64,000 nt of DNA from Escherichia coli (GTDB lineage: Bacteria; Pseudomonadota; Gammaproteobacteria; Enterobacterales; Enterobacteriaceae): assembly GCF_050920415.1 (NCBI RefSeq), contig NZ_CP169309.1. One strand, given 5' to 3'. Positions within the stretch are counted from its first letter, which is position 1, and the number at the start of each line of letters is the position of its first letter. The notes under the pieces are model-generated. The model had not been told where the DNA came from. It was given only the letters and a program-made list of their open reading frames with translations, and did not search any database. Below, piece after piece: positions 15,742-44,641 of the stretch. A program made the position numbers and the translations under genes.

Positions 15742-15824
15742 CACACCACATTGATTAAGATCACCACGCGTTCACAAGGTGGTCTTAATCTGTTTATCTC
15801 TTTTTCTTTCAAGATATAAATGCA

Positions 15825-41673: not shown

Positions 41674-41706
41674 CAAAAAAAACCCGCTGATTAAGCGGGT
41701 TTTGAA
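41674..41706. terminator. Bidirectional intrinsic terminator between convergent crcB and cspE
   Basis: aaaaaaaacccgctgattaagcgggttttg. Confidence 0.75.
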
Positions 41707-41722
41707 TTCTTGCTGACGTATC

Positions 41723-41932
41723 TTACAGAGCGATTACGTTTGCAGCAGAAGGGCCTTTGGCACCGTTAGTGATTTCGAACTCTACGCGCTGACCTTCAGC
41801 AAGAGTTTTAAAACCATTAGTCTGGATTGCAGAGAAGTGTACGAACACGTCTTTGCTGCCGTCTTCCGGAGTAATGAAACCGAATCCTTTGGACTCATTA
41901 AACCACTTAACGTTACCTTTAATCTTAGACAT
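41723..41932 (-). CDS. cspE: Cold-shock-domain protein CspE
   Basis: 69 aa from [20 protein letters not shown] (RNP1 motif); the track ORF is an upstream in-frame extension. Confidence 0.93.
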
Positions 41933-42106
41933 CAAAATTACCTTTACATGAAAAATAGACACAAATGCTGTGTCGGTTACCAGTACACCAATTGTGGTAC
42001 GCTTTGTCCAGTGCAACTTTACTAAAAAGTGATAAAAGTCGCGTTATTTTTGATGTTAATTATTTTACTCATTGATTTTAAAGAAGTTACTAAAATTTCA
42101 TTTGTC

Positions 42107-42667
42107 TCAAAACTGAAAGCGCATCCAGGCAAAGTACACATTGCCATTGTTATAGGTACCCGGAATGTAGGTCATCTGAAAAGTCACTGGACCATAACCC
42201 ACAGAGGCCAATGGCAGTAGAACCGGGAGAGGGATGTAATTCCAGTTATCGCGTGCCGTTACGCCAGCGGTGAATCCCAGTCCTAAATGAAAATTTTCAT
42301 CCGCCAGCGGTCGCCAGGTACTTTCCCATCCGTATCCGGCAATCGGTTCCCATTTGTTCCACGAGTCCTTAAATGCCATGGCATACAGGCCATGCCAGTT
42401 TCCTTTTTCATCCCAACGCGACTGACCAAAACCGCCACCCCACGGTCGCTCGTTATAGCGATCGGTTTTTTCTTTGTCGTAAGCGAAACGAGCATGCCAG
42501 GTGATGGCAGGAATATATAAATCATAATGTTCAGGCTGTTGCCAGGTTTGTGTAATATTTTCTCCAAACGTTGTCATCCACTCATCTGCGTTAGCTAAAA
42601 CTTTACCAACGCTGATTAACTGAATAAAAACAAAGGAAAATATAGAGACATATTTACTCACGTTCAT
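42107..42667 (-). CDS. pagP: Lipid A palmitoyltransferase PagP (outer-membrane beta-barrel)
   Basis: 186 aa from [25 protein letters not shown] signal peptide. Confidence 0.92.
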
Positions 42668-43152
42668 TTGTGACCATAAAACATTTATCAAAAATCTACT
42701 ATTAGCATAGCAAAACTACAATTAACATAACCTTAATAGACCCAACATGAAGAATAATCTGAATAGCTGTTCTATTTATTTCCGCTTGTTCAAGATAAAT
42801 ATTTCCGCGCATCTATTAAAGATGATGCGTCGTTTTCTGCGATGGGAATAGTCATAAAAGAAAAACCAAGTCTTTTTTGATGACAAAATACAATCAAGAA
42901 AAAATTACTTTATTTTTTAATAAGATACAAAAAACTTCTTAACGAAGAATATATTATATATCGTCAACCTATGCTCATGGTAGATTATTTTTTGAGCGCA
43001 CGCCCGCGGCTAACACCATTGCAATTAACAAATTTGCATCAATCCACCATCAATTTACACACATTATTATGTGATAATTGCCAACCGCTAAATATGCGTT
43101 TTGTTATCTATGTATAAAAACAGCAACTTCAATGTCTTAATGGCAGTTTTTC

Positions 43153-43166
43153 TTGATTTTAATCAG
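43153..43166 (+). promoter_or_regulatory. FNR/CRP-family half-site pair (TTGAT-N4-ATCAg) upstream of dcuC
   Basis: ttgatTTTAatcag about 90 bp upstream of the dcuC ATG, inside a 560-bp AT-rich spacer; dcuC is anaerobically induced. Confidence 0.4.
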
Positions 43167-43255
43167 CATTCACCGCCAATTTATTGGGCATATTTTTTCC
43201 TTAAGTTTTAGGAATTTTTTATTATTTACTTTGGGGCCTGGAGACAGGAAAAATT

Positions 43256-44641
43256 ATGCTGACATTCATTGAACTCCTTATTGGGGTTGTGGTTATTGTG
43301 GGTGTAGCTCGCTACATCATTAAAGGGTATTCCGCCACTGGCGTGTTATTTGTCGGTGGCCTGTTATTGCTGATTATTAGTGCCATTATGGGGCACAAAG
43401 TGTTACCGTCCAGCCAGGCTTCAACAGGCTACAGCGCCACGGATATCGTTGAATACGTTAAAATATTGCTAATGAGCCGCGGCGGCGACCTCGGCATGAT
43501 GATTATGATGCTGTGTGGCTTTGCCGCTTACATGACCCATATCGGCGCGAATGATATGGTGGTCAAGCTGGCGTCAAAACCATTGCAGTATATTAACTCC
43601 CCTTACCTGTTGATGATTGCCGCCTATTTTGTCGCCTGTCTGATGTCTCTGGCCGTCTCTTCCGCAACCGGTCTGGGTGTTTTGCTGATGGCAACCCTGT
43701 TTCCGGTGATGGTGAACGTTGGTATCAGCCGTGGTGCAGCTGCTGCTATTTGTGCCTCCCCGGCGGCGATTATTCTCGCACCGACTTCAGGGGATGTGGT
43801 GCTGGCGGCGCAGGCTTCCGAAATGTCGCTGATTGATTTCGCCTTCAAAACGACGCTGCCTATCTCAATTGCTGCAATTATCGGCATGGCGATCGCCCAC
43901 TTCTTCTGGCAACGTTATCTGGATAAAAAAGAGCACATCTCTCATGAAATGTTAGATGTCAGCGAAATCACCACCACTGCTCCTGCGTTTTATGCCATTT
44001 TGCCGTTCACGCCGATCATCGGAGTGCTGATTTTTGACGGCAAATGGGGGCCGCAATTACACATCATCACTATTCTGGTGATTTGTATGCTGATTGCCTC
44101 CATTCTGGAGTTCATCCGCAGCTTTAATACCCAGAAAGTGTTCTCGGGCCTGGAAGTGGCTTATCGCGGGATGGCAGATGCGTTTGCTAACGTGGTGATG
44201 CTGCTGGTTGCCGCTGGGGTATTCGCTCAGGGGCTTAGCACCATCGGCTTTATTCAAAGTCTGATTTCTATCGCCACTTCGTTTGGTTCGGCGAGTATCA
44301 TCCTGATGCTGGTATTGGTGATCCTGACAATGCTGGCGGCAGTCACGACCGGTTCAGGCAATGCGCCGTTTTATGCGTTTGTTGAGATGATCCCGAAACT
44401 GGCGCACTCTTCCGGCATTAACCCGGCGTATTTGACTATCCCAATGCTGCAGGCGTCAAACCTCGGTCGTACCCTGTCACCCGTTTCTGGCGTAGTCGTT
44501 GCGGTTGCCGGGATGGCGAAAATCTCACCATTTGAAGTCGTAAAACGCACCTCGGTGCCGGTGCTTGTTGGGCTGGTGATTGTTATCGTTGCTACAGAGC
44601 TGATGGTGCCAGGAACGGCAGCCGCGGTCACAGGCAAGTAA
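43256..44641 (+). CDS. dcuC: Anaerobic C4-dicarboxylate transporter DcuC
   Basis: 461-aa polytopic membrane protein. Confidence 0.93.
   Translation: MLTFIELLIGVVVIVGVARYIIKGYSATGVLFVGGLLLLIISAIMGHKVLPSSQASTGYSATDIVEYVKILLMSRGGDLGMMIMMLCGFAAYMTHIGANDMVVKLASKPLQYINSPYLLMIAAYFVACLMSLAVSSATGLGVLLMATLFPVMVNVGISRGAAAAICASPAAIILAPTSGDVVLAAQASEMSLIDFAFKTTLPISIAAIIGMAIAHFFWQRYLDKKEHISHEMLDVSEITTTAPAFYAILPFTPIIGVLIFDGKWGPQLHIITILVICMLIASILEFIRSFNTQKVFSGLEVAYRGMADAFANVVMLLVAAGVFAQGLSTIGFIQSLISIATSFGSASIILMLVLVILTMLAAVTTGSGNAPFYAFVEMIPKLAHSSGINPAYLTIPMLQASNLGRTLSPVSGVVVAVAGMAKISPFEVVKRTSVPVLVGLVIVIVATELMVPGTAAAVTGK

Follow-up and report, generated by a model that had tools for sequence, protein, structure and literature searches.

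The stretch of Escherichia coli DNA analysed here (64,000 nucleotides; hereafter the window) carries cspE (−), pagP (−), dcuC (+), dpiA (−), and dpiB (−) in this order. Although the longest ORF begins further upstream with a TTG, the K-12 annotation starts pagP at the minus-strand ATG at 42667. This start was adopted here, and the pagP–dcuC spacer therefore covers 588 bp. The first-pass annotation of this DNA had recognised the spacer and given it about 560 bp, which is too short when counted from the annotated pagP ATG. Since pagP and dcuC are transcribed divergently, the spacer is a shared bidirectional control region and not merely the DNA upstream of dcuC. The features of the region are listed in Table 1.

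Table 1. Coordinates of genes and of known, predicted, and candidate elements in the pagP–dcuC region (window positions).
Feature	Position	Strand	Remarks
pagP coding sequence, lipid A palmitoyltransferase	42107–42667	−	186 aa
Divergent pagP–dcuC control region	42668–43255		588 bp, 30.8% G+C; H-NS-covered in published K-12 data
pagP extended −10 element, TGcTATGCT	42704–42712	−	Conserved across genera; predicted start at about 42697, leader of about 30 nt
Three half-sites with 11-bp phasing, TATTAA-ggtta-TGTTAA-ttgta-GTTTTG	42711–42738	−	Candidate sites for OmpR-family response regulators (PhoP-like/ArcA-like)
Second inverted repeat ttgatgacaaaatacaatcaa, TTGAT-N11-ATCAA	42877–42897		Not an FNR site
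FNR binding site TTGATTTTAATCAG	43153–43166 (centre 43159.5)	+	9/10 consensus positions; identical to the ChIP-bound K-12 motif
Predicted −10 hexamer of the FNR-dependent dcuC promoter, CATATT	43189–43194	+	22 bp after the FNR box; conserved block GGCA(C/T)ATT
Palindrome TTCCT-N8-AGGAA at the predicted dcuC start	43197–43214	+	Possible operator
Predicted dcuC 5′ UTR, about 55 nt	43201–43255	+	Start predicted at about 43201 ± 3 from class II geometry (43159.5 + 41.5)
dcuC Shine-Dalgarno sequence, AGGA	43246–43249	+	
dcuC coding sequence, anaerobic C4-dicarboxylate carrier (succinate/C4-dicarboxylate)	43256–44641	+	461 aa

The AT-rich spacer and its pagP end

The strong AT-richness noticed in the first-pass annotation was confirmed by the base composition (30.8% G+C in the spacer, 50.0% in the whole window). 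The spacer is the deepest G+C trough of the 64-kb window, and only 0.14% of the 588-bp segments are equally AT-rich. A 701-bp query over the spacer matched 5409 of 5426 complete E. coli genomes, at one place per genome (median 1), and the annotation in all the matched genomes listed shows pagP and dcuC with nothing in between. The single match per genome and the trivial internal repeats led us to reject a mobile-element or repeat origin of the long spacer. The haplotype of the window is uncommon, with at least 99% identity in only 8 genomes. The spacer is about 96% identical to that of K-12 (about 4% of the positions differ) and has no indels. The differences lie mostly at 42855–43010, and the FNR box and the −10 block of dcuC are identical. 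The length of the spacer varies between genera, from about 280–300 bp in Klebsiella through about 400 bp in Salmonella and about 460 bp in Citrobacter to 588 bp in E. coli.

All the ChIP and expression data at dcuC and pagP cited here come from K-12, not from the strain of the window. The H-NS ChIP-chip intervals 654590–655558 and 655584–656283 (U00096.2), once transferred to the window, cover the spacer. In an hns mutant, pagP is derepressed 18-fold, and the silencing is countered by SlyA (Chalabaev et al. 2014). The G+C trough, the published occupancy, and the published repression together identify the spacer as an H-NS-silenced AT-rich control region. Given the H-NS coverage and the repression of pagP, the AT-richness is best read as H-NS substrate plus relaxed constraint. 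The earlier view of the whole AT-rich spacer as a regulatory region of dcuC thus holds for the FNR site, while most of the length and AT-richness belongs to pagP, with its promoter and H-NS.

In the alignment across genera, the predicted pagP extended −10 element corresponds to TATTAT, the −10 that Zwir et al. 2012 mapped in Salmonella. Two anaerobic sigma-70 ChIP-seq peaks, 655235 and 655742, have been reported in the spacer (Myers et al. 2013, PMC3688515). The stronger one, 655742, converts to window position 42705, on this −10 element, and it rises from 37 to 366 (about 10-fold) under anaerobiosis (Myers et al. 2013). The level of pagP mRNA rises 3.4-fold without oxygen.

Upstream of the pagP −10, a GTTAAG block and an ATTAA block are conserved across genera. 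The position and the 11-bp phasing of the half-sites are also conserved and are homologous to the footprinted PhoP box of Salmonella. The half-sites have 3 mismatches to the PhoP consensus and 5 to the ArcA consensus, which is not above shuffle expectation. For the PhoP box (T/G)GTTTA-N5-(T/G)GTTTA, the best candidates on the minus strand (42722–42738 and 42711–42727) have 3 mismatches, and there were 7 hits against 4.1 in shuffles. Because the consensus matches are at chance level, a regulator can be assigned to these half-sites only by inference. Judged by their sequence, the phased TGTTAA-type repeats would fit ArcA as well as PhoP, and both are candidates.

Two genomes differ at the pagP gene itself. 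In Escherichia sp. MOD1-EC7003 (locus L003, 1515–1916), the pagP homologue was matched in part, over 402 nt for a protein of 186 aa. In the strain SCPM-O-B-8794, labelled E. coli (locus L004, 1521–1700), the match covers residues 127–186 only. From these partial matches, pagP appears disrupted in both lineages, with the FNR promoter of dcuC left intact.

The FNR box and the dcuC promoter

The motif TTGAT-N4-ATCAG, reported in the first-pass annotation about 90 bp upstream of the dcuC start, is present as TTGATTTTAATCAG, 90–103 bp upstream of the dcuC ATG at 43256, with its centre at 96.5 bp. It matches 9 of the 10 specified positions of TTGAT-N4-ATCAA, and 8 matches with one mismatch were observed in the window against 2.9 expected. 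An FNR matrix was trained on 62 further sites from Table S6 of Myers et al. 2013, all bound by FNR in ChIP. With this matrix, TTGATTTTAATCAG scored 11.3 bits and ranked third among about 64,000 window positions. All 62 training sites score higher, and as good a score arises in 7% of shuffled spacers. By sequence alone, TTGATTTTAATCAG is a weak but valid match, marginally above chance, and its significance comes from its position, its conservation, and its published occupancy, not from the match itself.

The top FNR matrix match of the whole window is TTGATTAAGATCAC, at 15751–15764, with 16.3 bits. This is the hscC site at 682677, which showed no FNR binding in vivo and overlaps H-NS enrichment (Myers et al. 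2013); thus, a motif better than that of dcuC stays unoccupied.

The first-pass annotation had proposed anaerobic FNR control of dcuC, to be checked against published FNR ChIP data and to be given up if neither occupancy nor anaerobic induction could be attributed to the site. The published data for K-12 show both, at an identical motif. Table S6 of Myers et al. 2013 gives the 14-mer CTGATTAAAATCAA at 655281 (U00096.2) as a predicted FNR site of 12.38 bits with an FNR ChIP-seq peak over it. Its reverse complement is the 14-mer of the window, at exactly 43153–43166. The peak has its summit at 655298 (655340 in the ChIP table), is positive by both ChIP-chip and ChIP-seq, and persists in the hns stpA mutant (Myers et al. 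2013). The same study placed dcuC in Category 1, direct FNR activation, with sigma-70 occupancy and expression both rising anaerobically. In its RNA-seq comparison of the wild type with an fnr mutant, dcuC was classed as "Activated", with lower expression in the mutant, and the aerobic/anaerobic ratio was 0.0498, that is, expression was about 20-fold higher without oxygen. Myers et al. 2013 attribute the finding that dcuC depends on FNR to Zientz et al. 1999. The FNR site and the FNR activation of dcuC are thus already known, the dependence since 1999 and the occupancy of the site since 2013.

In an arcA mutant, dcuC is down 4.1-fold and pagP 2.8-fold (Park et al. 2013), so FNR is not the sole anaerobic input. 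That study reported an ArcA matrix site of more than 15 bits within the spacer, without an ArcA ChIP peak. The ArcA dependence of dcuC and the H-NS coverage of the region would suit an explanation in which the FNR-like motif is a chance match in AT-rich DNA and the anaerobic induction of dcuC is indirect, through ArcA or relief from H-NS. The weak matrix score, within reach of shuffled spacers, points the same way. We consider this explanation extremely improbable. It is contradicted by the FNR ChIP-seq and ChIP-chip peak over the motif, which is kept in the hns stpA mutant, and by the presence of the box in every lineage compared (see below) at a fixed spacing to the −10; an indirect route through ArcA is further opposed by the lack of a reported ArcA ChIP peak.

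The dcuC loci were taken from 80 enterobacterial genomes, and the 180 bp 5′ of the ATG were aligned for 37 lineages from about 20 genera. Two blocks were the most conserved upstream of dcuC, (T/G)TGAT-N4-(A/G)TCA(G/T) followed by TT.GGCA(C/T)ATT, and the remainder was unalignable. The first block, the FNR box, is present in all 37 lineages. The gap between this box and the CAnATT hexamer is 22 bp in 35 of the 37 lineages and 21 bp in the other 2, while 26 to 121 nt separate the −10 hexamer from the dcuC ATG. A G at −14 is conserved in the promoter. The position of a −35 element with a 17-bp spacer is occupied by GCATTC, which has 0/6 matches to TTGACA, and a generic promoter scan of 42500–43400 found no sigma-70 consensus pair. 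Within E. coli, the promoter core (43140–43210) has at least 95% identity in 5362 of 5376 genomes.

With 14 bp of box, 22 bp of spacing, and then the −10 hexamer, the centre of the box would fall at −41.5. Because the module of FNR box, 22 bp, and −10 is rigid across genera, dcuC is predicted to belong to the class II (−41.5) group. Among the directly FNR-activated promoters with a known start, 19 of 23 have the FNR site at −41.5 ± 4 (Myers et al. 2013). The sigma-70 peak 655235 converts to window position 43212, about 11 bp from the predicted start at 43201.

Position 14 of the FNR box carries the consensus A in none of the 37 lineages; ATCAG or GTCAG stands in place of ATCAA across about 20 genera. 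The conserved imperfection of this promoter-proximal half-site may point to selection that favours a submaximal FNR site, or to a constraint that overlaps it.

No mapped dcuC start and no mutagenesis of the dcuC FNR box came up in the literature surveyed. The entry for the dcuC FNR site in Myers et al. 2013 reads "TSS not in peak region". The dcuC start annotated at that time therefore lies elsewhere, and an extra upstream promoter may exist. A "constitutive" dcuC promoter, ATGACA-17-AATTAT, was proposed from SELEX and is purely predicted (Shimada 2014); the assignment is a best-hexamer guess. The entry of Myers et al. and the sigma-70 holoenzyme SELEX peak in the spacer, with its proposed hexamer pair, would both agree with FNR bound at its site while acting on a distal promoter such as ATGACA-17-AATTA(C/T) at 42880–42908, about 340 nt before the ATG. 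In that case the start would precede the FNR site, and CATATT would be no promoter element. An FNR site downstream of the start would repress, but dcuC is FNR-activated. The two anaerobic sigma-70 ChIP-seq peaks of the spacer lie at 43212 and 42705, and none is reported near 42880–42915. The hexamers fall in the least conserved segment, and the −10 in the window, AATTAC, lacks the invariant final T. A distal promoter would also leave the rigid 22-bp spacing between box and hexamer unexplained. We therefore regard action on a distal promoter as very improbable and favour the predicted proximal class II promoter.

Other candidate elements in the spacer and the dcuC leader

The second inverted repeat of the first-pass annotation, ttgatgacaaaatacaatcaa, does exist, one base away from the position 42876–42896 given there, and has 5-bp arms and an 11-nt gap. 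It adds nothing to the FNR case, having a gap of N11 and not N4 and no matrix score above 4 bits. Perfect inverted repeats with 5-bp arms are abundant in the spacer (34, against 17.5 ± 5.6 in dinucleotide shuffles), so ttgatgacaaaatacaatcaa is not remarkable individually. The surrounding segment 42860–42930, size-matched to the promoter core and placed where the spacer varies most within E. coli, has at least 95% identity in 207 of 3895 matched genomes, and a further 1531 genomes gave no megablast match. Escherichia sp. MOD1-EC7003 no longer has the left arm of ttgatgacaaaatacaatcaa, and this region can hardly be aligned with that of other Escherichia species. The repeat was rejected as an FNR or CRP site for its spacing, its matrix score, and its poor conservation. 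It overlaps the −35 hexamer of the SELEX-predicted dcuC promoter of Shimada 2014, whose −10 reads AATTAC in the window.

Generic consensus sequences were used to scan the spacer for CRP, ArcA, PhoP, NarL 7-2-7, SlyA, RcsB, EvgA, IHF, Fis, Fur, and GadE sites. No match to the CRP, ArcA, PhoP, NarL, SlyA, RcsB, EvgA, IHF, Fur, or GadE consensus was convincingly above shuffle expectation, and these matches were not taken as evidence. The sequence GATTATTTTTTGAGC at 42983–42997 is a perfect match to the Fis consensus used, for which 0.38 one-mismatch matches are expected by chance. It adjoins the sole G+C-rich patch of the spacer, GAGCGCACGCCCGCGGC (42993–43009), which is variable between strains.

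The first-pass annotation had also seen room for a small RNA in the spacer, a suggestion that gained no support from Rfam, the terminator scan, annotation, or conservation. About 400 bp of the spacer remain between the two promoters, short inverted repeats are in excess there as counted above, and small ORFs of 34–48 codons occur; all this would leave space for a small RNA, a small protein, or a regulator bound to the second inverted repeat. There was no Rfam match inside 42668–43255 even at E ≤ 1, and the scans of the spacer found no terminator-like site and no promoter-like hexamer pair. No feature is annotated in the spacer in K-12 or in the other genomes listed. In other Escherichia, indels of non-triplet length interrupt the small ORFs. 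The middle of the spacer diverges fastest within E. coli and is hardly alignable across Escherichia species, and the whole spacer of Klebsiella measures only about 280–300 bp. The small RNA and the small ORF were rejected on the Rfam search, the terminator and promoter scans, and the broken ORFs, and we give any such extra element hardly any chance.

The only strong Rfam hit nearby is a cspA thermoregulator match over the cspE leader and gene at 41675–42088 on the minus strand (123.8 bits, E = 9e-33). It is expected, because cspE is a paralogue of cspA.

The top inverted repeat of the region pairs 43188–43201 (GCATATTTTTTCCT, at the −10 and the start) with 43246–43259 (AGGAAAAATTATGC, at the Shine-Dalgarno sequence and the AUG) in 13 of 14 positions. 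In an RNA with both arms, the ribosome binding site is folded into a long stem (−28 kcal/mol, z = −2.3). The predicted FNR-dependent dcuC leader alone has no unusual structure (z = 0.60). The complementarity of the arms is strong in 5 of 6 Escherichia lineages (z from −3.3 to −4.3) and absent in other genera (median z 0.13). The promoter/RBS hairpin was rejected as a conserved element because it is limited to Escherichia. An Escherichia-only hairpin of about −16 kcal/mol might still block the ribosome binding site in read-through from upstream promoters and leave the transcripts from the FNR-dependent start, which lack the left arm, translatable, though we think this very unlikely. If true, the hairpin would insulate DcuC synthesis from spurious aerobic transcription. 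Coincidence is an equally good account, the reverse complement of the −10 CATATT being AATATG.

YeiE has been found by ChIP-exo to bind "downstream of RNAP" at dcuC with repression, published without coordinates. We speculate that the palindrome at the predicted dcuC start could be an operator for a YeiE-type repressor downstream of RNA polymerase.

Proposed mechanism and comparison with known systems

The spacer is partitioned into two short constrained promoter modules at its ends and an H-NS-covered, fast-drifting middle. We consider it, with a probability of roughly 0.88, to be a shared control region with a class II FNR-dependent sigma-70 promoter for dcuC and an H-NS-silenced extended −10 promoter for pagP. 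The FNR occupancy, the dependence of dcuC expression on FNR and anaerobiosis, the sigma-70 peaks, and the H-NS occupancy and repression have been published on the identical K-12 sequence. The present analysis contributes the identity to K-12 and the spacing of box and −10, which is invariant across genera.

Under anaerobiosis, dimers of [4Fe-4S]-FNR would bind TTGATTTTAATCAG at 43153–43166. The box would stand in for a −35 element, 22 bp upstream of CATATT and centred at −41.5 from a start at about 43201. Bound there, FNR would touch region 4 of sigma-70 and the alpha subunits directly and so recruit and activate RNA polymerase. Such contacts belong to the established knowledge of class II promoters. 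The dcuC transcript would then carry a leader of about 55 nt, and the DcuC carrier would be induced roughly 20-fold under anaerobiosis. On the pagP side, an extended −10 promoter behind phased GTTAA-type repeats would be silenced by H-NS spreading over the AT-rich DNA. The exact dcuC start, the activation contacts, and the regulator acting on the pagP repeats are the parts of this scheme that we infer.

Compared with the 2013 study, the increment is that the FNR site is now placed relative to the predicted −10 and the predicted start, which that study could not do. The importance is otherwise slight, and the locus is a tidy example of how a long AT-rich gap is partitioned.

The dcuC promoter resembles the class II FNR promoters of dmsA, narG, nirB, narK, and nrfA (−41.5), in which a TTGAT-N4-ATCAA-type box likewise replaces the −35, 22 bp from a weak −10. 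It shares with them anaerobic FNR occupancy, an anaerobic rise of sigma-70, and activation. Unlike this group, dcuC has an imperfect promoter-proximal half-site (ATCAG), the imperfection is conserved, and the start is a predicted one. No NarL or DcuR co-regulation is reported for dcuC, unlike nirB, narG, or dcuB. The paralogous anaerobic carrier operon dcuB-fumB is, like dcuC, FNR-dependent and anaerobically induced and has an FNR ChIP peak. However, the FNR site of dcuB is at −132.5 and the promoter depends on DcuS/DcuR, whereas dcuC has a predicted simple class II geometry and is not a DcuSR target.

At the other end of the spacer, the pagP promoter of Salmonella enterica (Zwir et al. 2012, PhoP architecture IV) has the same divergent pagP–dcuC arrangement. 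Its −10 TGtTATTAT is homologous to the E. coli TGcTATGCT, and the phased GTTAA/GTTTA repeats are homologous as well, whereas TGTTTA, the best of the Salmonella half-sites, has a degenerate counterpart in E. coli. In E. coli, pagP is induced in biofilms and in late stationary phase independently of PhoP, under the control of H-NS and SlyA (Chalabaev et al. 2014).
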